From Cladosporium halotolerans (Eukaryota), in the NCBI RefSeq assembly GCF_011745625.1, contig NW_027191459.1:1-64000 (forward strand): a stretch of 64,000 bases of DNA. Direction: 5' to 3'. Under the pieces are notes generated by a model. That model was not told where the DNA came from and made no database searches. It worked only from the letters and a program-made list of their open reading frames with translations. This document shows, piece by piece, positions 41,998-59,980 of the stretch; the stretch's first letter is position 1, and every line of letters begins with the position of its first letter. The position numbers and the translations under genes were made by a program.

Positions 41998-44900
41998 TCA
42001 CTGATAAATCGGGACGACCGTCGTCCGCCTCACGCAGACGCTCCCGGACACCGATCCATAGCGCGTAGAAAGCGACGACTTATCATGATGACATCCGTTC
42101 GCATGCTTGCAGGGCTTAGTGATCGTCACAGTCTCCGGCTGTGTGTGGTGACAGCGTGTGGAGTCGGCGCACACATGCGTCGTTTTTGTATAGATTATTG
42201 GCGGAACCGTTGTTGAGGTCGTCGAGTTAGAAGAGGACGGAGTGCTTGACGGAGTCGAAGTCGAAATTGATGTCGAACTTGAGCTACTCGATGAGGCTGT
42301 TGAGCTAGGAAACGGACTGCTGGACGATGTGCTCGAGGTTGAGGACGTGCTGCTTGACGATGTACTGGAACCTGGTGGGATGCTAGAGCTGGACGATGAG
42401 GAACTTGTCGTTGCCGTAGAGACAGAAGAAGTGGTCGATGTTGTGCTGCTGCTAGAAGTCGTCGAAGAGCTCGTTGAAGTCACAGGGACAGTTGATGAAG
42501 ATGAAGATGATGACGTCGTCGTCGTTGTGGTCGTTGTCGTTATCGGGATCGAGGAAGAGTCGGAGCTGAAGCTAGACGAGGTGGTACTCGTAGTGACTGT
42601 CGAGGAGCTGCTGCTTAAAGGAGAGGAAGAAGAGGATGTGCTAGAGCTCAAGGTGGTGGTGGTTGTAGTGATGGTAGTAGTCGTCGTCGTTGTGGTAGTC
42701 GCCCTCGTCGTTGTCGTCGGAGGTGGGGTTTCCGTAACGGATGATGAGGAGCTCGTTGTTGTCCTGGAAGACAGTTAGTGCATGTGCCGTGGGTAATTTA
42801 GAACAGCAGTCGCACGTTGTAGTCGTGGTGTCTATCGACGTTGTCCTTCAAATTGGTCAGCCAACTTTTAATCAAATGTCAAATGGACATTGTTACGTCG
42901 TGGAAGTCGTGGTCGTGCTCGTCGTTGTTCTTCAGGAAATCAAAGGTTAGCAAATCATGACCACTGTTAGTGCTACCGGACAATGTCTTACGTCGTGGTG
43001 CTTGAACTTGTGGTTGTCGTTGTTGTGCTCGTTGTTTCTTCCGGATACTGGGGCGGCACTTCCTCGCTGCTCGAGCTGCTCGTAGTGGTGGTAGTGGTGG
43101 TAGTGGTGCTTCAGCGTTGTGAGTGAGAGCAACCATAACGCCGCATTTTCACGATGCTGCACTTACGTAGTTTCATCCGGATACTGTGGCGGTACTTCAT
43201 CACTGGTGGTGCTGCTCGTTATCTCGGTGCTCGTCGAGGGAGTGGTCCTTTGCTAATGTCAGGGCATAATCTAGCGTGATGGAGGGGGGCTCTCACGTCG
43301 TAGTGGTCTCACCCGGGTATGCCGCCGGCGGTGGATCAGCTCTAACAGCGATGACGATGTCGTCCGCAGGCTCGTAACTTGTAGCCACTTCAGAGAAGTA
43401 GCAGAAGCCGTCGGCAAAGTAAACCGATCCGCAATATAGTGAGGTATCGCATTCTGTCAGACAATCGGACAATGATGGCGCAGACCTACTATAGTAGGCA
43501 GGACCGTACGGTTTTAAGTTGCATGAAAAGGCGTAAACCTCCCCAGATTGATCGGCCAGGGTCGTGCCATTGCCACCAATTTCCGCAATGTCATCACAAT
43601 CTTCTGGTATTACACTGGCGGTCGGGACTGAGCTCTCGCTACTCGTTGCTGCTGATGTTTCTGATGTTTCCGATGCTGCTGGTGTCGTTTCCGATGTCGT
43701 TGATGCTTCCGACGTCGTTGACGTTTCTGATGTCGTTGACGTCGTTGGAGTTGCTAATGATGTTGATGTTTCTGACGGTGTTGATGTTTCTGATGGTGTT
43801 GATGTTTCTGATGGTGTTGATGTTTCCGATTGCGTCGTACTTCACCAAGTCAGAAGGTCGCTAACAATTTCACAAGCCCTTGAAAGGGGTGGAAAGACTT
43901 ACATCGTCGTCGCTGTCTCAGACTCAGAAGCGCTGATAAGGAAAGGTCAGCAGATATCATCTCCCTGCTACTGGATCAAAGTGCTCACCTGCTTGACGTC
44001 GAGGTAAGCATCGTTAAAGTGGTCTGATACATCTGTCAGCAAACTCATCCTATTTGCGGAAAGCTGCATTTTCCTGAGAAATTTTCACTTGCCGTCGTGT
44101 TAGGGGCGTTGGCGGGGCAGTAATAGATTCCCATAGCAGCAAAGCCACCACACATCTGGGTCCTATTTCCGTTGCAAGCAAACTCCGGGTCTGAACACGT
44201 GATGAGAATGTCGCCCGCGGCCGTGTTGCCTGAGGCCAGTTGGTGAGGCGGCTGGATAGCGTTGTCGCAATAGCATTCTGAGCCGTACTCGACGCCTGCG
44301 TACGTGAAGCCGCGGCCCAAGCAGACCGATACACAGAGATCGATCGTCATGAGGTTGCGGTCGAGATTGTCATTCCTACTATCCAGAGCGCGGGGAGGCC
44401 CGTCATCGTCATAGCAGCCTACCCAATTGCATCCACTGACCACCAAGGGAGTAGCTAGGGGCGCTGCTGTATAGCTGGGCATCCTTGTGCTAGTCATGGA
44501 CCCTCCGGGCATATGCTGGTTCGGGGCGCAATTTCCGCCTTCGCAAAGTGGCTGTGTGGTCGTGTAGACTGTAGTGACACCGGCCAAGTCGGTGGTTGTC
44601 ACCGGAAACTCCGTCGTGCCGGTCGTCAATGGGCCATATTGCGTAGGCCCGGTGCTCGTGTACTCTGTGACGCCTCCAGTCGAGTCGGTTGTCGCGACTC
44701 TAGTCAGCGGAGCACGAGCGATACCATTGAACGTACACGGAGATTCCTGGGGTTTGGGAGAGAATCTTGGGCCGTCAATCTGATACATGCTCAACCGGAA
44801 GTAGCCTCCACACCTGTCCGTCGAATCGGCGCAACAGGAGTAGCATTCTGTAGAGAATCTGAAGTCAGCGTTGGTAGCGCAACGGAAGCCTTTGGTCTCA

Positions 44901-46129
44901 GCTAGAGATCAGGGACCTCTTTTTCCTAGGACATACTGAGACCTTGTTAGCACGGCCACAACACTCATCTATTTAATCAATCTTACCCGCCTTGACAATC
45001 GGCCAGTTGGGCGTTATTCTCTATCTCATTGCCGCAATAGCCTGCGTCGGTGTCAGTCGATCACCAACACTATCTCATGGTAAACACTCACACTCGTTTC
45101 CGTACTCGAGACCAAAATATGTGTATCCCTGGCAGAACGCGGAGCATTTCTCGATCGATCCCACGTTGGTGTTTGAGGAATTTCCCTGCAAGGTCCTTGA
45201 GTCTACATTGTCTCTGTAACAGCCGATGTAGATGTAATCGCCGTATTTCGGCTGGATGTAGGAATCGATGATGTACTGAAAGGCCGTCGCATATGGATCG
45301 TATGCGGTCGATGTTTGGCCAGCTTTCGCGTACTGCAAGACAGTCATCAGCGGATATGTGCTGGCCATGTAGACAAGGCTGTGCGCACAAATCCAAGCGT
45401 CCCGAATCCGCCGCAAAGCTCAGTGTTGTCGCCTTTGCAGGCGAAATCCGGATCGAAGCAGGTCAATGCAGACTCCGTGTTGACTTGCCGAGAATCGCCG
45501 TTCAAAAAGTCACCGCAATAGCCTTGAGGTCAAGGTCAGTATCTTACTGGCCGTTCAACAATTTCCATGTGTCCACTCACATTCGGATCCAAACTCTACG
45601 CCGAAGAAGTTGTAGCCTTGACACTAATCGTCCGGAATCAGCACTGTGCATGAAGTGTAACCCCGACGCCTGTTGCGCTGACGAACGAAAGGCCATGACG
45701 CCACGAAACGTACTGAGACGTGTCAGCACACTTCATCGCATAATCAATGATCATGTATCTTACCAAATTGAGCGCACACTTCAACAGTGACATTGACCTC
45801 GGGAGGGAGCATGGCATCAGATAAGGCGCGGCCCCCATTCGAGAGCTCTCTATAACAGCCGATCCATGAGAAGCCTGTTGCAAAAGAGCAATATGTCAAT
45901 GCACCTGCCAGCTTTCGGAACGATGGAGTCGACTGCAAAGCTTACCGTAACCCGGGTCGAGGATAGTCCGTGGTCCGTTGCTGCCATCGGGTTGTTGACG
46001 CCGTTCATGACTATCTTGTCGTATCGCCGGAACATAGTCCGGACTTAGCATCTCCCATCCTGCCAAAACACGATGAGCAAAGTAGGCAGTTATGAGAACC
46101 CACACGGGAAAGAATGTCCTGCTGGCCAT
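41998..46129 (-). CDS. Secreted multi-WSC-domain, Ser/Thr-rich (mucin-like) protein with many small exons
   Basis: Signal peptide MASRTFFPVWVLITAYFAHRVLA. Three WSC signatures: WIGCY..VEVCAQF, YIGCY..CSAFCQGYTYFGLEYGNEC and WVGCY..CVSVC..YAGVEYGSECYC. Long S/T tracts and more than ten short introns. The exon structure is only partly resolved. Confidence 0.8.
43761..43829. repeat. 18-bp coding tandem repeat, about 4 copies (SETSTP on the minus strand)
   Basis: TGTTGATGTTTCTGAYGG repeats directly at 43761, 43779, 43797 and 43815, with more degenerate units back to about 43650. Confidence 0.85.
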
Positions 46130-46619
46130 GGTGCCAGCTGCTTGCAATATTGAACGACTGTGTATCTCCACGCTGGTCTAGAGGACGAGATAAGAGAAAA
46201 CAGGCATATAGGGAGTGTTGTTGCTGAGTGCAGGGCGTTGCATGGGACGGGGCGATATTGCATTCCTCGTCCCGAAGAGACGGGAGAGCAATGATCAACG
46301 CCATACTTCACATAGATGCGAAGTACGGCCAACTGTGAAGATGTGTTCAGATCACGAAATCATCGACATGTATCTTAATCGCTCCTAGAAAGACCGGCAC
46401 ATCAATTCCGTAATCGAGATCGCCGAGAGATCAAGAATGCAGGCAAACGCTGAGTAGCTGGAGCCATGCAATGCTTGTCATGATGAAGCCAGGGATTGCC
46501 CAGGCCACACGGCAAAAAGAACCATGTTGTCGGGTCACAGAGCAACGGGGTGATACCCACGGTCACAATATGGGCAAGAATGGCAAAAAAGAAAGGTCTG
46601 ATCATGCTTTGATAGGAAT

Positions 46620-46741
46620 AGCCGAAGGTGGGGCTCGAACCCACGACCTTGAGGTTGATCTCTTGAACTGATACCAACTACCGTGTCATGGTAGATGATG
46701 GTCATAAGAGCCACACGCTCTACCGATTGAGCTACCCCGGC
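46620..46741 (-). tRNA. tRNA-Lys(CTT) with a canonical 49-nt intron at position 37/38 (46656-46704)
   Basis: Reverse complement reads GCCGGGG TA GCTC AATCGGTA GAGC G TGTGG CTCTTA [intron] A CCTCA AGGTC GTGGG TTCGAGC CCCAC CTTCGGC T, which is 73 nt mature. A T6 terminator lies at 46585-46590 on the minus strand. Confidence 0.9.
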
Positions 46742-48377
46742 AAGGGTAATGATTGATGAAGGGAGGAGAGGGTCACGCGTATAAGAATCGTGCGCTAAAT
46801 CTTTTTTCCGACCAAAATCGGCTGAAAAATGAATTTGTGAAGCAATTCACTTCCAAATTACGTGCCTTCCTATTTCGTGGAAATCGCTCACCCACGTCGC
46901 GCGTCGAAAGTCTGTAAGTTGGGAGTGATCGGGTTGGCCATGTTTATCGTATGGTTCAGCCTCGACTGTACAGCATCGATAGCCACCGAGATACCTCGAT
47001 TGGAAGCCCTTGTGCATGGGTATTTGATGTCCAGCGAAGAAAAAAAAATTCTGCCTTCAGGTCGAAGTACAATCGGCGGCCTGGTCACGATCCTACTTCT
47101 ACCGCTATCATTCTCGGTCAAGTATACTATTGTGTGTTGTCTCGTGCAGTGTTGTGTTTGGTGGTCTACCACCGCCGAAGCGGAATGGAACAATTTCATA
47201 GAAATTGACGACGTGCAATGACGACGACCGATCAATGCCAAAGTACGCATGAAGAATTTCCATCGCATCTCGTCGAAAGTAATGCACCTCCCAGCGAGCA
47301 TCGCCAGAACACCAATCCACGTTGCTGCAGAGAAGTAATTCCCACAAGCCAACCCCAACCCTTACCCTAACAACCCCACCGGCGCACCACCGCCGCCGAC
47401 TGCCACCTCCTCGAGCCGATCATTGATATTCTGCCGCACAAGACCCACAGGCAGAATTCATCATCTCCCTGCACGGTTCTCCTCCAGACGACCTCGCAAG
47501 CACAGACGCCGCTCGGCAAGATCTCCCCGACCGCGACGGCGCTCCGATTCCGAAAGTCGCTTGCTGAGTAAACCAGACGTGGCAAGCGTGGCAGGGCTTC
47601 GTTCACCGACTGGGGAGCTAGGGACGGCTAGGTCGCTGATGGGGTCATGGATAGTTTTTTGCCCTAGTTCTTTTTTTCGCTGAGTCAAAGGCAGATGTGG
47701 AATGTCTGTGGTGTCGCTTTTGTACACGGGACTTGAGAGTCATTGCCACTGTAGAGGCGACTTTCACATATTGACGTGGGCCGGCGCTTCGTGCGACGGG
47801 GAGTTGAAGTGGTCGCGCGACCGACTGGAGGCATGACATTGACAAAGTTTGAAGTCAAATTCGAAGCGCAATTGATGCTCGGTGAGCTTTCAATCTATTC
47901 GCTACAGGTAATCCAACACAGCCTGATGCTCTATCCAAGTCCTGTGCACCTCGTTTCCCATGCCTCTCTCCCGCCGCACGTCCTGTTGAGCGGGATCACC
48001 CCGTTCCAGCGCCAAAGACGTGTGCTCTATGACAGTACACCGTTGCGTGGGCATAATGAGCCCAGCGTAGCACGTACTGCCAGTCTGGCTACCCCGAGTC
48101 ATCTCGCCTTGCCGACACCATTGGTGCTTTTGATCGTCGCCAATGCACCACCATCCACAAGACAGCTAGCAGATTGCTTAGCCGGATGGGCGCTTCATAA
48201 GTTGAATTGGCGTTCTACCGTCCGAGTGAATACTGTCGATGTCCGCGTCCGTTGAGGTTATTGATGTAGATCGTATAGATCGTAGAGTCGTGAATCATTC
48301 TGATCGTGATAAATGTCGCAACCGGTCAACCAGCGCCGGTGCGATGCTGCGTCTCAGAAATAAGGTTGGCCAGTCGC

Positions 48378-48623
48378 TCACGCCTTGTTCTTGCGCAGAG
48401 AGAAAGCACGCAAGCGTGTCTTCACAGGAGTTGCTGTTGTCTGCGAAGACGGCGATGAAGGCCTTCCGCTTGAAGACTGACTGCTGTCGCTCGCGGTCGA
48501 GATGCTGCCCGACGATGCTGACCGTCTGCGAGTCTCGTCGATTGTCGCCTCAAGACTCACGTTGGCGTTTGAGTAAGGTGTGTCGCATGTGTCGAGGATC
48601 TCGACGAATTTGGAGGACGACAT
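48378..48623 (-). CDS. Small (81 aa) Ser-rich hypothetical protein
   Basis: Clean ATG in a good context (CGACC ATG TCG). The MSSSKFVEILD..PYS.ANVSL N-terminus resembles small Pezizomycotina hypothetical proteins, from memory and not searched. It is the only plausible ORF in an otherwise gene-free region of about 4 kb. Confidence 0.6.
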   Translation of the reverse strand: MSSSKFVEILDTCDTPYSNANVSLEATIDETRRRSASSGSISTASDSSQSSSGRPSSPSSQTTATPVKTRLRAFSLRKNKA

Positions 48624-50660
48624 GGTCGTGTGTGATGATGTGGTATCCGTGCTTTATCGCGGTGTCGATAGACGAGATTGTAGTAACAGATCTGATCGCA
48701 AAATGGTGTAGGGCTTTTTGAGGTTGACAGGGACTTGAGTAGAGGCAGGGATTGAAACACCTCCCAGCCAGAGGCGGGACACGAGGGGTAGGAATATGAA
48801 TGATCGCCACGAAACGCGCAAGTAGGTGGGCGTCAGAGGGCTCGCATACAACAAACCCTTCTGGCGTTTGCGCATAGCCTCCACACCCACGTCAGAGCCG
48901 AACCCACAGGGTCCGGCGCCGCGCGGAGACTATCTTTGCCCTGGGCGAGACCCGAGGCCGCACGATATTCGGCTCGACTTGCTAGCTTTCCTTAGTCCTG
49001 TCGCTCCGTCGCTCACTCTCCTCTCTCGAGGCGGTGATCGAAGGGGCTGCTCGCTGCAGGCTGCGGCAAGACAAAATGTGACCGGTCGCGCGCGAGTCCA
49101 GACCTGTGCAGATTGCAGACGTCTGGCGCAAATGGGTGAGGCGGCAGGATTGCGGCGGGCGCTCTGCACCGTGCTGCACACGTGGTTGGTGCTGGGCGGT
49201 GGCACAGCCGTTCTTCCTCCTCGGCGTGAGGGAAGGCCGCGGAGAGGGGAGGGTGGAAAGGATGTTCCAGACCTGCATAAGACTGCGCGGAGCAATCTCA
49301 TAGTGTCTTGCGTAGATCATGGCGACGCGCCATGTGCCGTACCTGTGCCGCCCTTGCGTCTGTCGCATGTCGGTTCTGTTTCGGGCCATGTCGACCGTGG
49401 CTCGCACATCCATTTCGAGCGTCTCCGGAACATGCAGCCTGGCTCGACTGCGGTACTGGGTGCAGAGGGCGAGCCAGCCAGCGCACAGCCGATAGTGGCA
49501 AAGACGCAGTCGGCCGACACACGCCGGTACGCGACGTATCCGACCGCGGCAACAATACACGACTTTGTCATTGAGTTGGTGGCGGTGCCGCCTGGCTACC
49601 ACGGCTGCAGGCACACACTTTCCACGCTCGCGTCGCGTCGCCAGTCGTCGAGTGTTTGTTGCGCGGCGGCGAGGCTGATGCAGCCATCCGCCGCCTTCCA
49701 TCCGCTGGACGCGAGCCGGCCTTCCATGCGCCGGGAAGTCAGCATGGCATTGCGAACGACGCGCTCAGCACCGTAAACAAAGCAGGCCAAGTCACGACTC
49801 TCACTGCCGTCTATCCCGACGGCCTCCCGGCTCACCGCAAAAGCTTCAGCGCCGCATCCGGCGGAGGCTCAAAGTCAGCGTTGGTATACTTTGCAGCTGT
49901 GGGTTTCCCGCACGCTCGTGACCTGCAAATTGCAGAGGGACGTCACGCGCCTATCGAACTTCATGGAGGCATCGAGCTTTTCGAGCTTCTCGGGCTAGTT
50001 TATATGCAGAGGGGGATCAGCTATGCTGCTATTGCTTGATATATGATGAGCGATATGGCCTTTTTCAGAAGCAGATGATCTTGTCGGACGGTGCGCCGGT
50101 GTTAGCGTCGCTACTGTCAGCCCGTTCATGACTCTCTATGTTTGCAGACTCTGGAGCTCGCTGTCAGTAGGTAGCCGATGGCGTGATACAGTACCTAGGT
50201 ATGCCTCGGCTTGAGAGCGTACAGCAGGATTCCAGAAGCCTATTGTGAAGAGCGTGAGCGAACCACCCGGAGATCTCCCATGGTCGGAAATCGGATGACA
50301 GAATGAGTCGCGAGAATTTCACTAATCTTGACCGCTGCACAAAGTACGGGGGCATGTATTCACATATATTTGACGTGAGGATATCTGCTGACCCCGACGC
50401 AACTTCAATCACGTGTTGATGACGAGACTTGCGAAATTGGTGCTCTTCGGCGCTCATAGTCAAGCGAGGTGAATTAGTGGCAAGGTTATGCGGCTGTCGA
50501 GGAAGCGTACAATTTTAATGGACACCTCATGCTTCAATGGTGCTGCCGGTGCGATGACATTGCATGTCGAAGGGGTGGTGTGCGAAGAATCATCATGTTG
50601 TTGCTTTATATTTACGTTAGATGGCAAAGTCGTCATCAATTTCAAGCTTGAGCTTGACCA

Positions 50661-50788
50661 AGCTGAGTGGCGCAGCGGAAGCGTAAGTTCACTCTCCGAG
50701 TTCGAATCTCATCTGAACCAATTCTAACAACCACATAGGCGCCGGGCTCATAACCCGGAGGGCAATGGATCGAAACCATTCTCAGCTA
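50661..50788 (+). tRNA. Initiator tRNA-Met(CAT), interrupted in the D-stem by a 56-nt GT-AG intron-like insert (50683-50738)
   Basis: Joining 50661-50682 to 50739-50788 gives AGCTGAG TG GCGC AGCGGAA GCGC G CCGGG CTCATAA CCCGG AGGGC AATGG ATCGAAA CCATT CTCAGCT A (72 nt). All four stems are fully Watson-Crick paired. Initiator hallmarks are present: A1:U72, GGG/CCC anticodon stem, A54 and A60. Confidence 0.93.
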
Positions 50789-50790
50789 CA

Positions 50791-50807
50791 TTTCTTTTTG
50801 TTTTTTT
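50791..50807 (+). terminator. RNA polymerase III oligo-T terminator of the tRNA-iMet gene
   Basis: TTTCTTTTTGTTTTTTT begins 3 nt after the discriminator base. Confidence 0.8.
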
Positions 50808-51081
50808 GGCCCCTTCTACTTTCTACGTTTCATGCAAGCCCTCCTACGAAGGATTTATTGTTGATTTTTTTTGTATCCTCTAGCAAAGTTTCTCCGTTGC
50901 GCCAACGATCTCAAGACATTCATAATCAGACATTCATTACATGTAAACAGGGCTATAGAAAGGCAAGCCACATGACCAGTGAGAGCGGATATACTTGCAA
51001 TTTCATGGAATCCTCTATACCAATAATCAAAAGGCCTTTGGTGAGATTGCAGCTACCAAGGCGTAGTCTATTGTCTAGAAA

Positions 51082-52688
51082 CTATTGCACCGTACACATA
51101 CCAGCATCCCCAGAAGTATCGCTCTCCTCGTCAGCGACAGCCACGCCACCACTCGCGTTCAATCTCGCAGCGATATACGCCGTCCGAAGTCTAGTTCCAA
51201 TCTCAACCCAGTGCGCGTTCCCAAAATCCCCTTCGTAATCCACAAGCAGCTCGAGCAAATCATCCCGCGTCGCCTCCTCTTCCGCCGCCATGTACGCGGC
51301 CACCAGACACAGCGGAATGTGACTCGCGCCCAAAGGTCTGGACGACGAGGCTTCGCGCGCGAGCGAGACGGCGTCGCAGCAGAAGCGCACGCTGTCTGCG
51401 GTCAGGGAGAAATCTGAAGGATCGAGCACGGAGAGGACGGCGTTGCAGGTGATGCAGATGCCGAGGAGGAGGCTTCGGGCTACTTGGAGCAGGGGCTTCA
51501 TTTTCCGCGCGAGCGCGGTTGCTGACGGATCTGGGCTGGAGGACGCGAGGTCGGAGAACGTGGCTTGCCGCGCCATGACCTCCTCGCTGTCGAGGCAGGC
51601 GCAGTAGTACAGGCTTTCGATCTCGAGGAGGTTTGCGCGCGGTGCTCGGAGGAGGTCGGGGAAGCCCGCGAGGGTTTCTAATGTGATTGTGTTGCGTGGG
51701 AGGCCGTCGGTTGGTGGGCCAAAGGGGACCTTCCCGTTTTGGGGTTTGGCGGGACCACTGTGGATTGAGAGGTTTGCGCGATACCACGGGTGCAGTTTGA
51801 TGGTGGGGTCGAAGATTGATTCCAGGATCTGATCAATGTGTGAGGTTTTCGGAAGAGTACATGTATAGATCAATGTGCACTCACCACCACCATACACATG
51901 GAGGTCAGCACCTGGTGCTCGAAGCCTTCGCCCAATTGATGTACGGGGAACTTGCCGGCGACGGCATTGAGGACTTGAGCAACGGCTTTGCCATGGCGTA
52001 TCATCTCATCTCCGGGCTTTGCAATCCAATTCTACGTATCCAATCAACGACCTGTTCAAAGTAAAGCTGATGGACAACATACCTGGCAAATAAGCACAAA
52101 ATAGATGGCGCAAAGTAGTTCCACGATCTGGTCTTTGTTGGGTGAGCTCAAGGACTTCCTGAGCACTCGCAAGGCACGCCCATACTGGGCTAGAGCTTCA
52201 TAAGAAGGCTGTCGGTTGTACACTGCGGGATAGGTGCATATCAGAGCCGATGCAGATGCATCAAGAGCCGGATGAGCACCCAGACGTTTAGGGATCTCGC
52301 CTAAAAAAACGCCGTAGCAAGATAGATCAAACCTGGGATCTTTGACGCCCAGACCAGTGACAAAAGAGCCGATGAGGAGCGTTGCCTCATTTGAAGGTGG
52401 TGGCGATGGCTTGAACAGCTTCGCGACACCCTTCCCTTCTGGCGATCTCCGCTCTCTCTTGACGACAGTCCCCTCTTCGATCTGTACGAACTTGAATCGA
52501 CGCTGTCCGCTTCCCAGACAGGTAAGGCCTAGCCGTTTGCATCGCGCACAGGAAGGCTGCTGCCCATCGCACTAATAAGCGAAGCTTTAGTAAAAGGTGT
52601 CGTGGCACTCCACTCGAGACGGCAGCCTGACCTTCTTCTTCTGCTTGCGACAGGCGTCACAACCACGGCCCGATGGCACACCGGGCAT
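51082..52688 (-). CDS. Zn(II)2Cys6 fungal transcription factor
   Basis: MPGVPSGRGCDACRKQKKK|CDGQQPSCARCKRLGLTC after removing intron 52572-52631. Further introns at about 52032-52082 and 51850-51884 link to the 271-aa C-terminal frame. Confidence 0.88.
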
Positions 52689-53231
52689 TCTACTGCGCTG
52701 CGTGCTACCGCAATGGGGCACCAAGACGGCGTGTGAGATGCATGTGTACCATGGAGGAGTACTTCGAATCTTACATTATTGAGACCGAAGGTGTCTGGGG
52801 TACAAAGCGGTGCGGCTGAGAGCTGAGTGCTCGCGTTCGTCAAGGGTCCACTAATTGCGACAATACTGGCCAAGGTCCATACCCAAAGGACCAGGTAGCG
52901 CCAAGAGCGGCGCAAGCGACCTCTTTGGGCATGAGTGGGTCGAAGGAATACAGCACCACCTCATGGCCGCGCTTGGGAACGTCATTGGACCCATCTAATT
53001 TTTCGCCTTATGTATGGCACACCGACCGATGATTCTACCACAGCCACAATCGACTTGACATGCCACAGGCACTAGAAGAATGTGACCACAGCGAGTAGGA
53101 TCAGTGTACGCACGATGAGAAGCAATCTAACACATTTCGAACTTGACAATGGATCAAAACCTTTAATAAAGACTATGCTACGTATCAAGCCACTGGAAAT
53201 TCATTCAGCGTCTCGTTACTGTATCACACCC

Positions 53232-54833
53232 TCAGGCCGCCGCCGCCGCCTCGCCACTGCCCGCCGCCATCTCCCACGGACCCATATCAGGCTTACACCG
53301 GGACCCAACATTCGGCAGCACGCCGTCCTTGAAATAAGCCTGCAGATGCCTAGCAACACACTTCGAAGGCGAGACCGCCAATCCGTGTCCATAGCCACTG
53401 TGCGCCAGCACCATGCTGCCCTTGAACCCCGCGCTCGCAGCATACGCATTCGCGATCGGAGTGACGGGGTCGAACTCGCCGTTGACGTACAGGATCGGGT
53501 GCTTCGTCGTCGCGTCGAAGTCGCCCGTGTACCGCTCTTTCGCGTCCATCCGCCAGCGCGCGGATGGCCAGAGGCTCACGTACTGCGCGCTCCAAGAGCT
53601 GACGCGCGACTGGCGCTCGACTTGCGGGAGGTACTCTGCGCTGCTGTTCGTGCGCCACAGGGCGTCGCTGCCGCGGATGCCCATGACGGCCCAAGTTGCG
53701 CCGAGGTTGTAGGGTTCTATGGCGGTGGTGGTGTTGAGGAGGGGGGAAGCTGTGCTCGATCCGTTCAGGACGCCTGTGAGGAAGTCTGCGAGCAATGGCC
53801 AGGTTGCGGGATAGTAGAGAGGGCCGAACACTGCGCTTGTGCTGCCGCTGTAGAGCTGCCAGGCGAGATTGCTTGAATTTGCGCTTTGCGCGAATGGGTC
53901 GAGGTAGTCGTTCAGCGGCTCGAGCATGTCGTTGATGGAAGTTGCGTTGGTGAACTGCGCCAGCGAGCAGTTCGGTTTGTTCGCCAGGCATTCGTCCAGG
54001 AAGCCCTCGACGGCTTTGTCTGCGTCGCGGAGGAAGTCTCCGTAATGCCCGGCCTGGTAGTCGGTGGGAAGGAGGTTTCCGTCGAGCACCATGCGATCCA
54101 CTCTGTCCGGGAACATCGCTGCCGCGTAGGATCCGAGGACCGTACCGTATGACCAGCCATAATAGCGGAGCATCCCGTCCTCGCCCAGCGCGTCGACAAT
54201 GTTCATCATATCGCGCGCGGTGAATGCAGTGCCGATGTACTGGCCGGTCTGGTTCATGGAGGCGTAGCATGCGTCTGCGATGTCGCCGGCAGAGTCCCAG
54301 CCGTAGTTGAGAAAGTAGTCCGTGAGGTTCGCGCTGGCGATTCCTGAATAGTCACGCTTACTATGACCTTGAGGTGTCGAAAGCATTAGGGCATCCATCC
54401 CGCAATCGAAAGGTAGCGTTTTGCCAGTGCCCCGAGGGTCCCATGACACAAGATTCCATTGCCTGCCGATGTTGGCTGCCATTTGGTCTCCAACGGCAGC
54501 GAGATTCTCAACGCCGGTGCCGCCAGGTCCGCCAAAGTTGATCAGTACCGATCCTAGCACAGGCTCTTCCGTTGCGTTGACTTTGAACAAATCTAGCTGG
54601 AGTTGTTCTGAGGTTTCATCGGTGTAGTCCAGAGGCACTTCGATATGAGCGCAATCAAAGGTGGATCCTTGCACCTGGTTCAATATTGTGATATTCTGGT
54701 TGAGTTCGGGGCAAGCCTGCCAATTGATGCCTCGATTGCCTTGCGACTCTGGTTGCTGAGGCGGCGAGTTTGCTGCCACAATGAAGTCTGCCGCGGCCGA
54801 AGCCACAGCAGCGTTGAAGGCGTCGGTAGACAT
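53232..54833 (-). CDS. Alpha/beta hydrolase, tripeptidyl-aminopeptidase-like (TAP-C domain)
   Basis: Motifs INFGGPGGTG, SWDPRGTG, nucleophile elbow GWSYGT, MVLDG, DPVTP (catalytic Asp) and GYGH (catalytic His). Intronless. Confidence 0.88.
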   Translation of the reverse strand: MSTDAFNAAVASAAADFIVAANSPPQQPESQGNRGINWQACPELNQNITILNQVQGSTFDCAHIEVPLDYTDETSEQLQLDLFKVNATEEPVLGSVLINFGGPGGTGVENLAAVGDQMAANIGRQWNLVSWDPRGTGKTLPFDCGMDALMLSTPQGHSKRDYSGIASANLTDYFLNYGWDSAGDIADACYASMNQTGQYIGTAFTARDMMNIVDALGEDGMLRYYGWSYGTVLGSYAAAMFPDRVDRMVLDGNLLPTDYQAGHYGDFLRDADKAVEGFLDECLANKPNCSLAQFTNATSINDMLEPLNDYLDPFAQSANSSNLAWQLYSGSTSAVFGPLYYPATWPLLADFLTGVLNGSSTASPLLNTTTAIEPYNLGATWAVMGIRGSDALWRTNSSAEYLPQVERQSRVSSWSAQYVSLWPSARWRMDAKERYTGDFDATTKHPILYVNGEFDPVTPIANAYAASAGFKGSMVLAHSGYGHGLAVSPSKCVARHLQAYFKDGVLPNVGSRCKPDMGPWEMAAGSGEAAAAA

Positions 54834-55421
54834 TCTGGGAGAGTGTTGCGAACCGTATTCAGAGGGCTGTGAGAGTTGATGGCAGCTATTGCAGCCATGA
54901 CAGGCTACAATATATTTGTTTGGCAGCGGCGCATGCTTCTGGATGCAGAAGCCAACATCTGACGTAGCCCAAGCACTGCGCCTTGTAAGGATTATTGAGC
55001 CAAGATGCCTCTGCGCACATTAGCAGACCGAAGAAGGATAACTAGCAAATTAACAGAGCCACGATGAAATCCTTCTTGCATCCTATGGGGCTTGGGAGCG
55101 CTAGATGCATCCATATAAAGTTAGCGTCTCGTACAGCCCGCATGAAAGCTGGCTCCGCGCCGTGGAGGTGTCTTAGTGCGAGTCATGGGGACGAGGAATG
55201 ATCACGTGGCACGTCCTGGAGAGAAATGCATGGCTAGCACGAGAGGTGTAAGGTCTCTATGAAATATCGAGGTAGTGTTATGAGTTGATCGTGGCGGGTG
55301 GTAGTCTGCCATTGCTGCCATTTGACATAGTCTTTAATTGCATCTTCATGACGCCAGGAATATCCAGAGGGCCAAATAGGATTGGCGTGCGACCTGGAGG
55401 GCGTTAGATAGCTAAACCGTC

Positions 55422-56564
55422 TTACGGTCTGAACTCCGCTTCCCAATTGAATCCACCTATTTCATCGTCCGTATCAGCTGCCAAAACCCGCCCGCGACTC
55501 TCTACAATACTCCTCACATCCTGTAGCGCCTCCTCAGCACTCTCATACTCTCCCTTCCATGCCTTGACCAGACACGGACCTAACTGCTCTGTCTGCAACA
55601 CCGGCCAATCCTCAAACTTGCCTTCCTGCACGGCTAATTGCTGCGCCCTTCTCTCCTCACGAGTCAAGCGGTGCCGATCATCTAACACCACTTTCTCAGC
55701 TACAGTCAGCCGACGCCTGCGCTTCGACATCAGTTCGTACACCCAACACGCCCAATCGAAAAGGTCCGTTTTCGGTTGTCCGCACTCATCCACACCAAAA
55801 GGTGGATCAACTTGCTGCACATCTGATGGGCCGAAGGGCGAAAGGAGTGCATTCGCTGTCTCCATGTTCCCAGCGGGAATGTCGAGCTCGCGACACGAAG
55901 CTCCGACGAAGGCCGCTACTACGATAGATAGGTCCGGCCGCAGCCATATGCATGAGCCTTGTGGCGCGTTGAGCACAATGCCCTTGCCGTGAATGTAGCG
56001 GCAAGCTGAGAGATATTGCAGCGCCCAGCGCTGGTGAAGAGCCAGGCGGACATCACGTTTCTCGTCTGCGTGAGGGATATTGTCCCAGGACATGGTTAAA
56101 GCCGGGTATTCGATACGGTAGGAAGATTGTGTTGAGCCTAGAAACTTGACCACCCGTTTGCAGCTCGCTTCTCCAGTTTCGAGTCTCTCGTGTATTTTGA
56201 TCGTATAAGCTAGACGGCGGGCAGGTTCAAGATGCACTGGATGTCGGGCGTCATCCTCATAAATGACTTCTCCTGTTTCAGTCTCGGCTACGAACGAAGC
56301 AGGAAAGACCAAGGCGTCACGGCCATTGTTAGCTGGAGCAATACGCCAATCCTCATGCCATTCGTCTAGAAAGTCTGTATCTTCGTCGAAAAGTGCATCC
56401 TTGGGAATTGGGCTGCCACTGTAAGGTCGTCTGCGGTCGCTTTCATGATGAATTCGGGGTGAGTCGTATTTGCGCGCATATTCTGCTGCAGCGACTCTCT
56501 CGTTTTCTTCACGTGGTGATCTGGAATCGTATCCGAAAATACGAGAGATATATCTGCTCAGCAT
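55422..56564 (-). CDS. Protein-kinase-like fold protein, probably a pseudokinase
   Basis: RWALQYLSACRYIHGKGIV, KTDLFDWACWVYELMS and LGPCLVKAWKGEYESAEEALQDV resemble the alphaE, alphaF and alphaH/I segments of a kinase C-lobe. The catalytic HxD and DFG motifs are absent. Confidence 0.6.
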   Translation of the reverse strand: MLSRYISRIFGYDSRSPREENERVAAAEYARKYDSPRIHHESDRRRPYSGSPIPKDALFDEDTDFLDEWHEDWRIAPANNGRDALVFPASFVAETETGEVIYEDDARHPVHLEPARRLAYTIKIHERLETGEASCKRVVKFLGSTQSSYRIEYPALTMSWDNIPHADEKRDVRLALHQRWALQYLSACRYIHGKGIVLNAPQGSCIWLRPDLSIVVAAFVGASCRELDIPAGNMETANALLSPFGPSDVQQVDPPFGVDECGQPKTDLFDWACWVYELMSKRRRRLTVAEKVVLDDRHRLTREERRAQQLAVQEGKFEDWPVLQTEQLGPCLVKAWKGEYESAEEALQDVRSIVESRGRVLAADTDDEIGGFNWEAEFRP

Positions 56565-58102
56565 GGTGTAGTGCGTTGGTTTAGGAGGCTGAGGTCCCCG
56601 GCGAAAGTTCGAAGCCGACTTGAGACTGCCCAATTGTAGCAGCAAGCGTCAAGAGGAAAGAGTAATCCTTGCCGAATAAATACATGATTGGCAAGAAAGG
56701 AGACGATTGGTTGTTGGTAGAATCTATGTCAGTCTACCTCACGGATGAGAACTGCAGCCATCCTGACAAGTGGAAAGTGAGCCTGACGGAAGTTGACTGG
56801 ACGCTGATTGGCGCGGCTGCAGCCGGCGCTAGCTCCGGGACACATCCTTCTCACTTGACAAGACCACGTGACGAGACAATTTTTCCGTTCTACGATGGCA
56901 TGCGCTTGGAGCTCCCATCAGCTGTGAATGGAATCCCGAGGTAGCAGTAGTGAGAAACCATGCTCCTGGCTGATCAAGAACTGTAGAACTCTGATTGGCT
57001 ACTTGGGGGCTGGCGCTAGCTGCGGGCAGTCTCTGTGATGTATCACACGTCACGTGATCAATTTTAGACAAGGGCTGCTAGTCGATCGTACGGCGTGTTA
57101 GAGGATCTGCATGTATTTAAATAGAGCAGAAACATGTATGTTTACTCCCACAAGACACTCGTGTTCCTTTTCATCAGCAGCCTACCATGTTGTCGTCTTA
57201 TCGACTGGGTTACGTCGCATTGCGATCGGGTTCAGGTCACAACCGCACGACGATATTGATCGGCTATCGTCCCACGCGACTAACACAAGGGTCGACGCTG
57301 GGTAGTCGGTAATACTGTGTGAGCCCAGTAGCATACCTGATTGCAGTGAGGATATGGGCACCATCTTCGAAACACTGGCATCTCGAGCAAGTGTCAAATC
57401 TCACAAAGTCCTGAGCTGATGTACTACTTGGAGCGCGACAGGGCTCCTGCGATTGACCGCGCGAATTCAAGTTTGGGGACCATTCGAAGATGAGAATACC
57501 GATTTCAGGAAAAGGACAATTGCCGACGGGCTTCCACCGCTTCTCGCTTGATGAGGCGGAGATAAGTGCGGAGTCGGAGGCGGGGGTGGAGACGATCAGG
57601 GCTAACGGCTCAGGGTTCGGGCTGTCTTTCCACGAGGCACCCACTCACATTTACACTCACACCTTTCCCTTCCAAGTTAAGGTGATCAACCCCAAATGCA
57701 ACCCCGGTTAAATCTCTCGCCTTTTTGACTTGCCGTGCTGACCAGCCGGCGATTCAACACTCATTGTCCGAGTCCCTCGGCTTCTGACTGGCACCCAAAC
57801 CTTGAGGCACGTCATAAAGCTCATCCGGCATACCACGAGGAAGTTGTCGACCGCGGTAAACTTTCGACGGTGAATTGGGGAATTGCCATGAGAGCGCGAA
57901 CTCCACTTCTATCATCCGTGCCCCAGCGACTGTCGGGTTATGTGGTACCGCAGCGGGGTACTATCTTCGCAAAGGTAGGATCTTGACCGGGCCGAGTATT
58001 TCTTAGCCGAGCGGTATAAATGTAGGTCCCAGTCTCGATGTGCCCAGTCCGACTTTCTACTATCAAGCAACCAGCGACATGCCTCACGCAAACATGGAGG
58101 CA

Positions 58103-59980
58103 ATGAAAGCGGCCGCTATCGGCCTACTTCTTTCTGTCCCATCTGCTGTAGACGCACAACAAGTCTACCTAGCAGCCAATGGCTCCACACCGCGGCCTCA
58201 GTGCTCCGAGTGCAGCAGTGGTGAGCCGAGTTACACCTATACGCCTTTCGCCTACAGCATGACATCGACCGTGCGTTATGCGACCTCACGTCCTTCCCCG
58301 ACCACGACCGCTACCTACGCCCCTCCTCCAGAGAGCCTCGTGTCCCTCATTCCGTCTCAGTCATACACGACATGGGGCAAATGGAATCCAACCGCGAATG
58401 CTTCTGCGACAGACGCCAGTGATCCGTACGGCAATGCTGCTTGGACTGCTCTCTGGGTGCATGCCAACCCACCCAATTTTACCCAGGAGGCAACGAGTGC
58501 CATCTTCAGCACCACCATCGAGCCGACTCCGATTCCCTCCTCAGAGCTGGTACTGCCCCCGCGTGACTACTTCGGACCGAGTGATTGCTACAACTTCCCT
58601 CCGGGTTTCGAGTTTGGTGTGGCCAGCTCCGCGAGCCAGATTGAAGGAGCTACTGCGGAAGAGGGCAAGGCTCCGTCTCTGATGGACATCCTTGTCCAAG
58701 ATGAAAGGCCCAAAGACTACACTACGAATTAACACTATTATTACTACAAGCAGGATATTGAGCGAGTCGCTGCCATGGGTGTCAAGCATTTCTCATTCAG
58801 CATTGCCTGGACTCGAATCCTACCGTTTGCTCTTCCCGGAACGCCGGTGAATCAGCAGGGCATTGATCACTACAACGACGTGATCAATTACATTCTTGAG
58901 AAGGGCATGGTTCCAGAGGTCACACTCCTCCATTTCGATACGCCGCTGCAGTTCTTCGGATCCAACTTGACTGCAGCACAGGAGCCACCAGAGATTGGAT
59001 ACGTCAATGGCGCCTACCAAAACGAAACCTTCCCAGACTCTTTTGTGAACTATGCAAAGATCGTGATGAGCCACTACGCGGATCGCGTCCCTGTCTGGTA
59101 CACCTTCAATGAGCCTCTGCTGTACTCCAACAACGGACAATCGATCTACAACGTCATCAAGTCGCACGCCCGAGTCTCTCACTTTTACAAAGACGAGCTA
59201 AAGGGCACCGGCAAGATCGCTCTCAAGTTCAACAACAACTTCGGTGTACCACGCAACCCTGAGAGCGAAGCCGACGTCTACGCCGCAGACCACTTCAACT
59301 CCTTCCAACTCGGCCCCTTCTGCAACCCCATCTTCCTCGGCGAAGACTACCCCGAGTCCTACAAGATGACAATCGCCGACTACGTACCCCTCACACAGGA
59401 AGACCTCGAGTACATGAACGGCACCGCCGACTTCCTCGGCGTCGACCCCTACACCGCGACCGTCATCGCGCCGCCCGTGCCCGACTCCCAAGAGAGCATC
59501 GCCGACTGCGCCGGCAACTCCTCCTCGACCTTCCGCCCCTACTGCGTCAACCAGACGACCACCGACGTCTTTGGCTGGAACATCGGCTACCGCTCGCAGA
59601 GCTACGTCTACATCACGCCCACCTATCTGCGCCTGTATCTCAACTATCTGCACAACACGTGGCGCACGCCCGTCGCCATCACCGAGTTCGGCTTCCCCGT
59701 CTTCGGCGAGGAGGACAAGCTCAGCCTTACCGACCAGCTCTTCGACTCGCCCCGCAGCCAGTACTACCTGAGCTTCATGAGCGAGGTCCTGAAGGCGATC
59801 TGGGAGGATGGCGTCGAGGTCGTTGGCGCCTACGCGTGGTCTTTCGCCGATAACTGGGAGTTTGGCGATTACGCTCAGCACTTCGGTATTCAGACTGTCA
59901 ACCGCACGACGCAGGAGAGGCGGTACAAGAAGAGTTTCTTCGATTTCGTCGATTTCATGAAGGCTAGGGGTGTGGACTAA
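58103..59980 (+). pseudogene. Secreted glycoside hydrolase family 1 (beta-glucosidase) gene with a single in-frame TAA at 58730-58732
   Basis: Signal peptide MKAAAIGLLLSVPSAVDA, then FEFGVASSASQIEGA, N*HYYYYKQDIERVAAMGVKHFSFSIAWTRI, acid/base TFNEP, nucleophile ITEFG and WSFADNWE. Both ORF halves are in the same frame. Confidence 0.75.

Follow-up and report, generated by a model that had tools for sequence, protein, structure and literature searches.

A gene for the initiator methionine transfer RNA (tRNA) whose D stem is interrupted by what looks like an intron of messenger RNA (mRNA) raises the question of whether such a gene works and how its transcript could be matured. The gene lies at positions 50661-50788 of the 64,000-nucleotide (nt) stretch of Cladosporium halotolerans DNA analysed here (contig NW_027191459.1 of assembly GCF_011745625.1, forward strand; hereafter, the window). 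An earlier reading of the letters had proposed that it is split by a spliceosomal (GT-AG) intron. The exons, the insert, the GTAAGT, CTAAC and CATAG signals, and the T-tract are all present where this original prediction placed them, and joining 50661-50682 to 50739-50788 gives the flawless 72-nt initiator tRNA-Met that it described. We consider it likely, with a probability of about 0.8, that this is a working ascomycete initiator tRNA-Met gene in which the 3' strand of the D stem is split by a 56-nt U2-type intron, and whose RNA polymerase III (Pol III) transcript would be matured by the spliceosome. The features of the locus, read in the sequence unless stated otherwise, are as follows.

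50605-50614, plus strand: TATA-like element at -56 to -47 from the tRNA 5' end, a possible upstream promoter element
50633-50639, plus strand: TCATCAA upstream motif at -28..-22, shared with loci of the clade of the window copy (motif count)
50661-50682, plus strand: exon 1 of the initiator tRNA-Met, 22 nt (acceptor 5' strand, D stem 5' strand, D loop, G22 and C23)
50668-50678, plus strand: intact A box (internal Pol III promoter) within exon 1, assigned from the usual tRNA A-box position
50683-50738, plus strand: spliceosome-type intron, 56 nt, between tRNA positions 23 and 24
50683-50688, plus strand: 5' splice site GTAAGT
50699-50709, plus strand: B-box-like element within the intron, matching the tRNA B-box consensus at 9 of 11 positions
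50724-50728, plus strand: branch-site motif CTAAC; its branch A (50727) is 11 nt upstream of the intron end
50736-50738, plus strand: 3' splice site TAG (intron end CATAG)
50739-50788, plus strand: exon 2, 50 nt (remaining D stem, anticodon arm with CAT, variable loop, T arm, acceptor 3' strand and discriminator A)
50767-50777, plus strand: the gene's own B box, of initiator type with A54 and A60, within exon 2
50795-50807, plus strand: Pol III terminator, T5 (50795-50799) and T7 (50801-50807), 6 nt behind the discriminator base

ARAGORN recognised the joined exons as a 73-base tRNA-Met(CAT) with a perfect cloverleaf. Eukaryotic cytoplasmic initiators are marked by A1:U72, by three G:C pairs closing the anticodon stem, and by A54 and A60 in the T loop. 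The window cloverleaf has all of these (T loop ATCGAAA), together with the CAT anticodon. As anticipated, the initiator call is obtained only once 50683-50738 is removed: at default settings, ARAGORN called no tRNA anywhere in the window, and with introns allowed, it miscalled the locus as tRNA-Glu. The expectation that standard finders would miss the gene was borne out for ARAGORN, but the Rfam tRNA model does find the unspliced window copy, end to end (50661-50788; 42.3 bits for a gathering score of 29) with 67 nt left unaligned in the D arm. The same model reached its gathering score at 3 of 20 related intron-bearing loci, 2 of the 3 being partial matches, which would help such genes escape notice. 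Initiator tRNA genes in such fungi are probably often unannotated. The placement of the insert at 23/24 holds in its coordinates, but the junction can slide by one G, GT..AG and TA..GG giving an identical product.

Intron signals and positions across related initiator genes

Metagenome contigs were scanned for related genes with a pattern of two initiator blocks, from the D loop and the anticodon loop, that may have any 38-98 bases between them, with no splice signal required. This pattern matches the window once, and it gave no match in 100 shuffles. The scan returned 53 loci, of which 51 are initiator genes with an insert. The remaining two, L006 and L032, were rejected as fungal initiator loci, because a bacterial-type initiator tRNA lies there downstream of an unrelated chance match to the first block; they were excluded before all counts. 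The A-box block is near-invariant in the 51 loci (one C/T position) because it is part of the search pattern. Judged from these sequences, intron-bearing initiator genes are common among uncultured fungi. We found no convincing coding open reading frames in the 400-nt flanks of the metagenome loci.

A GT..AG reading that restores the 7-mer of the D/anticodon stem exists in 52 of 52 loci (the 51 and the window), 50 of them found by script and two (L009 and L053) by reading the sequences, where it lies one base further, at 29/30. The 48 distinct first introns are 48-60 nt long, and every one starts with GT and has a G at +5. Their most frequent 5' hexamer is GTAAGT (18), followed by GTAAGA (9), GTATGT (5), GTTCGT (5), GTTAGT (4), GTGAGT (3), GTACGT (2), and GTAAGC (2). 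A CTRAY motif occurs in all 48, with the branch A 9-13 nt upstream of the intron end, and 47 of 48 end in YAG (CAG 24, TAG 23, with a single AAG). The window intron itself has the features of the U2-type GT-AG class: GTAAGT, CTAAC at a short and constrained distance, TAG, and a length and signals like those of three mRNA introns of the host (see below). The spliceosomal character claimed for the insert is thus strongly supported by loci that were collected without any splice-signal criterion. Because the conserved parts are those needed by U1, by the branch-site factors, and for the choice of the 3' splice site, removal by the spliceosome appears by far the best reading; lariat chemistry and dependence on splicing factors would be expected from it.

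The comparison with relatives that had been suggested gave a clear pattern. In the clade of the window, 18 loci (the window included) have one identical spliced tRNA, whereas their introns share on average 49% pairwise identity (range 30-77%) and nevertheless keep GT, CTRAY, and AG. Fifteen of these loci have the intron at 25/26 and three (the window, L033, and L043) at 23/24. In our reading of the alignment, the introns at the two positions share interior motifs, and because of this they look homologous. They appear to be displaced by one GC unit of the GC repeat of the stem, which looks like natural intron sliding. An introner-like mobile-element origin of the window intron was considered and rejected, since no similar copy was found elsewhere within the 64-kb window, where the best other match is 12 nt.

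Across all related loci, the introns occupy nine positions, from 8/9 to 56/57. First introns lie at 25/26 in 17 distinct loci, at 26/27 in 12, at 23/24 in 10 (the window included), at 24/25 in five, and at 22/23 and 29/30 in two each. The other three positions are those of second introns, so that some 72-nt genes hold two GT..AG introns: 8/9 combined with 26/27 or 23/24 (L001 and L020/L038), 29/30 with 45/46 (L009/L053), and 24/25 with 56/57 (L025). In the last of these the second intron splits the gene's own B box, and this intron carries a B-box-like GGTTCGAG.

Gene function, copy number, and a putative spliced RNA

Removal of the intron leaves a complete 72-nt tRNA in 46 of the 48 distinct loci (the other two are cut by contig ends), and ARAGORN identifies all 46 as tRNA-Met(CAT). 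Among the 21 distinct spliced sequences, none of the 441 stem cells is unpaired, and 8 of 21 pairs are changed on both sides, i.e., they are compensatory; RNAalifold recovered the same eight compensatory pairs from 40 unspliced genes. The A:T first acceptor pair and the T loop ATCGAAA are kept throughout the 21 sequences. Part of this conservation was set beforehand: the D arm and the anticodon loop CTCATAA are fixed by the search pattern, acceptor pairing served as a filter, and in loci without an intron in the 3' half the filter required the T loop ATCGAAA and left the T stem free. Taken together with the copy number described next, these sequences support the view that the locus is a working, multi-copy nuclear gene for the cytoplasmic initiator tRNA-Met.

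Four coded sequencing runs (X1, X5, X9, and X19) were compared with positions 44500-58500 of the window. X9 is a declared metatranscriptome, and X19 and X5 are DNA-like. Since X19 contains 98% of the sampled words from 46500-56400, it is probably the source DNA or the same strain. Its unitig over 50659-50764 has a single-copy depth of 39.5, while the unitig over 50737-50788 reaches 139.8, compared with 32-34 on the flanks. This repeated unitig extends without a break from the AG that precedes exon 2 as far as the discriminator base, and the graph does not branch at 50739. We infer that there are about four gene copies with an identical exon 2, each preceded by AG. An intron-less copy with this exon 2 would branch the graph at 50739, and hence X19 seems to contain none, all copies being apparently intron-bearing.

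The kind of run X1 is recorded only as a guess, and its organism is a relative differing by approximately 3-5%. We read it as RNA because its contigs skip mRNA introns and because its depth varies strongly between genes. These contigs skip three GT-AG introns (56, 51, and 60 nt) of the neighbouring gene on the minus strand (approximately 51.1-52.7 kb), and X9 shows the same three joints. The resemblance to mRNA introns of the window that had been claimed for the 56-nt insert thus holds for length and for the GT..AG ends, in a comparison with only three control introns from one gene. At the tRNA locus, one X1 contig joins 50682 to 50739 exactly, skipping 56 nt with GT..AG ends, at a depth of 17.7, with 26 or more letters on either side of the joint and one letter ambiguous. 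Because a paralogue with a different intron would align through its own GT and AG, we read the exact boundaries of this joint as probably those of a true spliced form. Neither X19 nor X5, the DNA-like runs, shows this joint, and at the tRNA locus X9 and X5 either lack coverage or lack a joint, which is uninformative either way.

Transcription and alternative explanations

The terminators and promoter elements point to Pol III. In 42 of the 44 loci with enough flank, a run of four or more Ts starts within the 20 nt behind the discriminator base, and in 39 of 44 a run of five or more lies within 30 nt. Within the introns such signals are scarce: 5 of 53 have runs of four or more Ts, compared with 11.0 expected from shuffles, only 1.5% of which have as few. 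Together with the A and B boxes, these T-runs suggest that Pol III reads through the intron.

The intronic B-box-like 11-mer of the window matches the tRNA B-box consensus at 9 of 11 positions, as many as the initiator's own deviant B box. Elements within two mismatches occur in 4 of 53 introns (shuffle mean 0.18, largest 3 in 1000), and within three mismatches in 8 of 53 (shuffle mean 1.75, with none of 1000 shuffles reaching 8). It is a possibility that the element promotes the window copy. As a general reason for the introns, an intronic B box was rejected, because 45 of 53 introns have no match within three mismatches. Further upstream, TATA-like motifs are found within -80..-1 in 26 of 46 related loci, clustering at -65..-48 and -39..-32. 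The motif CATC[GA]A occurs in the same interval in 16 of 46 loci; 12 of these, all from the clade of the window (itself included), have it at -22..-36. These TATA-like and TCATCAA motifs may mark a long 5' leader or an upstream promoter element.

The proposed pathway would run as follows. Pol III would transcribe the gene from the A box of exon 1 and the B box of exon 2, perhaps helped by the intronic B-box-like element, pass the T-run-poor intron, and terminate at T5/T7. The spliceosome would then recognise GTAAGT, CTAAC, and TAG by intron definition, remove the lariat, and join C23 to G24. The D stem and the L-shape could form only after splicing, to be followed by end processing and modification.

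Two of the alternatives deny either the function of the gene or the role of the spliceosome. If the locus were dead tRNA-derived sequence, the real initiator tRNA would come from intron-less genes elsewhere. Such a decayed pseudogene, which the original prediction had already argued against, is very hard to reconcile with the full stem pairing and compensatory changes over 21 distinct sequences, with the conserved terminators, and with the fourfold X19 unitig that begins at the AG and has no branch at the start of the exon. The insert could instead be removed by the tRNA splicing endonuclease and ligase, or by another protein endonuclease, in the manner of the ectopic tRNA introns of red algae and nucleomorphs, which are cut by the tRNA endonuclease; its GT-AG look would then be incidental. 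That enzyme recognises structure and, in eukaryotes, measures how far the site is from the tRNA body; an endonuclease of this ruler type could not serve nine intron positions, the window intron lying at 23/24 and not at 37/38. The route is favoured by the ordinary endonuclease-type intron of a tRNA-Lys in the same window and by the fact that described nuclear tRNA introns all take it, according to the accessible text of a review (PMC10275265). Against it, every helix that RNAalifold predicted from the 40 unspliced genes belongs to the tRNA itself, and no helix lies within the intron or spans it. Of 53 introns, each tried at five offsets, just one has 4 of 4 pairs in the central helix of a bulge-helix-bulge, and its outer helix is poor; the rule used is strict with motifs of the archaeal type and weak with those of eukaryotes, the positive control (the window tRNA-Lys intron) having also scored poorly. 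The spread of positions and the RNAalifold result are thus the stronger arguments. In addition, 47-48 of 48 introns retain GT, G+5, a CTRAY at fixed distance, and YAG although their interiors diverge, and an endonuclease that reads structure would not require these signals. We regard removal by an endonuclease as highly improbable.

A third alternative accepts the spliceosomal intron but makes the precursor a substrate of RNA polymerase II (Pol II), transcribed by read-through from upstream or from a TATA-like promoter, with the tRNA cut out by RNase P and RNase Z and with Pol III minor or absent. Co-transcriptional splicing coupled to Pol II is the rule, and many loci have TATA-like motifs far upstream (-65..-48). 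The spliced contig, with its at least 26 letters on the 5' side, includes at least four leader letters beyond the 22-nt exon 1. One further X1 contig (record 3, 1095 nt) aligns to the end of the upstream gene (49623-50560) and seems to continue towards the tRNA through a joint from 50560 to 50641 that skips 80 nt; possible causes are read-through transcription across the tRNA gene and an indel in the relative's sequence. On the other side, the A and B boxes are intact, the terminators behind 42 of 44 genes and the depletion of T-runs in the introns make sense only for Pol III, and contigs cannot reveal the starts or strands of transcripts. We hold a Pol II origin to be distinctly unlikely. Several observations nevertheless weigh against a Pol III transcript matured by the spliceosome. 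Pol III transcripts are generally held to be poor substrates of the spliceosome, fission yeast U6 being the known exception, and the case for Pol III here consists of boxes and T-runs, while five introns contain runs of T4-T5 and the B-box-like element is confined to a minority of introns. The RNA joint comes from a single assembled contig of a relative that is approximately 3-5% divergent, is marked 'between: not known', and could reflect an intron-less copy in that relative's genome. The contig that seems to extend from the upstream mRNA gene makes a Pol II read-through precursor possible. Many of the 51 loci are paralogues or orthologues, and their counts are not independent events.

Known introns, consequences, and neighbourhood

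Spliceosomal introns outside mRNA genes have precedents in fungi. The available part of a review of U6 (PMC5855946) lists them in U6, U2, U5, and U1 small nuclear RNA (snRNA) genes and in ribosomal RNA genes, and does not name tRNA there. Its reference list includes, for the mRNA-type U6 intron of Schizosaccharomyces pombe and other fungi, Tani and Ohshima (1989, 1991) and Frendewey et al. (1990), and the review lists introns of ascomycete ribosomal DNA (Bhattacharya et al. 2000) and of Rhodotorula U1, U2, and U5 (Takahashi et al. 1993, 1996). According to the title of Frendewey et al. (1990), as given in that reference list, the Schizosaccharomyces U6 introns contain a match to the tRNA B-box consensus. 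The window intron resembles these U6 introns in being a short GT-AG intron within a small structural RNA gene of Pol III type and in carrying a B-box match (9 of 11). It differs from them in its host, a tRNA and not a component of the spliceosome. Since a tRNA is not at the catalytic centre of the spliceosome, the explanation of U6 introns by reverse splicing is not directly applicable. Further differences are that B-box-like elements occur here in only 4-8 of 53 introns, that positions shift by single nucleotides, and that there are up to two introns per 72-nt gene. The introns of ascomycete ribosomal DNA and of Rhodotorula snRNAs are likewise spliceosomal introns in fungal non-coding genes rather than in classical Pol II mRNA genes, but the host here is 72 nt long, with exons as short as 8-22 nt.

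Among tRNA introns, the closest parallels are the ectopic introns of Cyanidioschyzon merolae and of nucleomorphs, which, in the accessible portions of PMC3728597 and PMC3978253, were uncovered by searches keyed to the bulge-helix-bulge. Like the introns described here, they lie in nuclear tRNA genes outside 37/38, are sometimes several per gene, and are missed by ordinary finders; unlike them, the introns described here have full spliceosomal signals and no bulge-helix-bulge. The parts consulted of a review of tRNA processing (PMC10275265) set tRNA splicing apart from the spliceosome and mention no exception, and the corresponding parts of this review and of PMC12530127 name no route other than splicing by endonuclease and ligase for nuclear tRNA introns. 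The original prediction knew of no described case in a tRNA, and we likewise found no tRNA gene described as carrying a spliceosomal intron in the full-text literature searched, including the accessible text of PMC12530127, PMC10275265, PMC8450103, PMC8007984, PMC5855946, and PMC11146597, most subscription journals and the supplements lying outside this scope. There is perhaps a small but appreciable chance that an earlier report exists beyond the searched literature.

The data support the tRNA as a probable new and unexpected host for a spliceosomal intron in a non-coding RNA gene. A more general scenario seems to us somewhat better than an even bet: throughout a broad ascomycete group, each initiator tRNA gene would contain true spliceosomal introns, either one or two, and these would constitute a third type of intron in nuclear tRNA genes; they would slide by 1-2 nt along the GC repeat of the D and anticodon stems, and some would have acquired a promoter role through a B box, as fission-yeast U6 introns have. 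With all copies apparently intron-bearing, this fungus would need the spliceosome to initiate translation. If this is true, a Pol III transcript of approximately 130 nt must pass the spliceosome before any protein synthesis, and translation initiation in these fungi is hostage to splicing. The spliceosome would have a new class of substrates, probably products of Pol III, which would be very short, highly structured, and without a cap. Such introns would also explain why fungal annotations may seem to miss initiator tRNA genes, and the loci would form a clean natural series for the study of intron sliding and gain, with identical exons, homologous-looking introns, and shifts by GC units.

The initiator gene sits between an upstream gene on the plus strand and a downstream gene on the minus strand. 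The surroundings include the following features.

46620-46741, minus strand: tRNA-Lys(CUU), the sole other tRNA of the window (Rfam, 49.5 bits)
53232-55019, minus strand: neighbouring protein-coding gene

The tRNA-Lys(CUU) gene holds an intron of the ordinary kind, of approximately 50 nt, behind the anticodon loop. It shares with the initiator intron its approximate length and its host, a tRNA gene of Pol III type in the same genome, and it differs in its canonical 37/38 position after the anticodon loop and in having no GT..AG and, on inspection, no CTRAY. The ordinary kind of tRNA intron thus coexists with the initiator intron in the same genome and looks unlike it. In our reading of the sequence, the tRNA-Lys intron contains AAGAG, which could pair with the anticodon loop; the gene has one U:U mismatch in the anticodon stem and a T-run at its 3' side.

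In a gene at approximately 47.15-48.3 kb, X1 skips 48 nt at 47334-47383, in a C/A-rich, repeat-like stretch whose ends are GT..GG and do not read GT..AG on either strand. This skip is probably a strain indel rather than an intron. The best named relatives of the protein encoded at 53232-55019 are from Endocarpon, Exophiala, Fonsecaea, and similar genera, at approximately 57-62% identity, which would put the fungus near the Chaetothyriales/Verrucariales but with no close relative among the named matches of that search, and one match reaches 98%.

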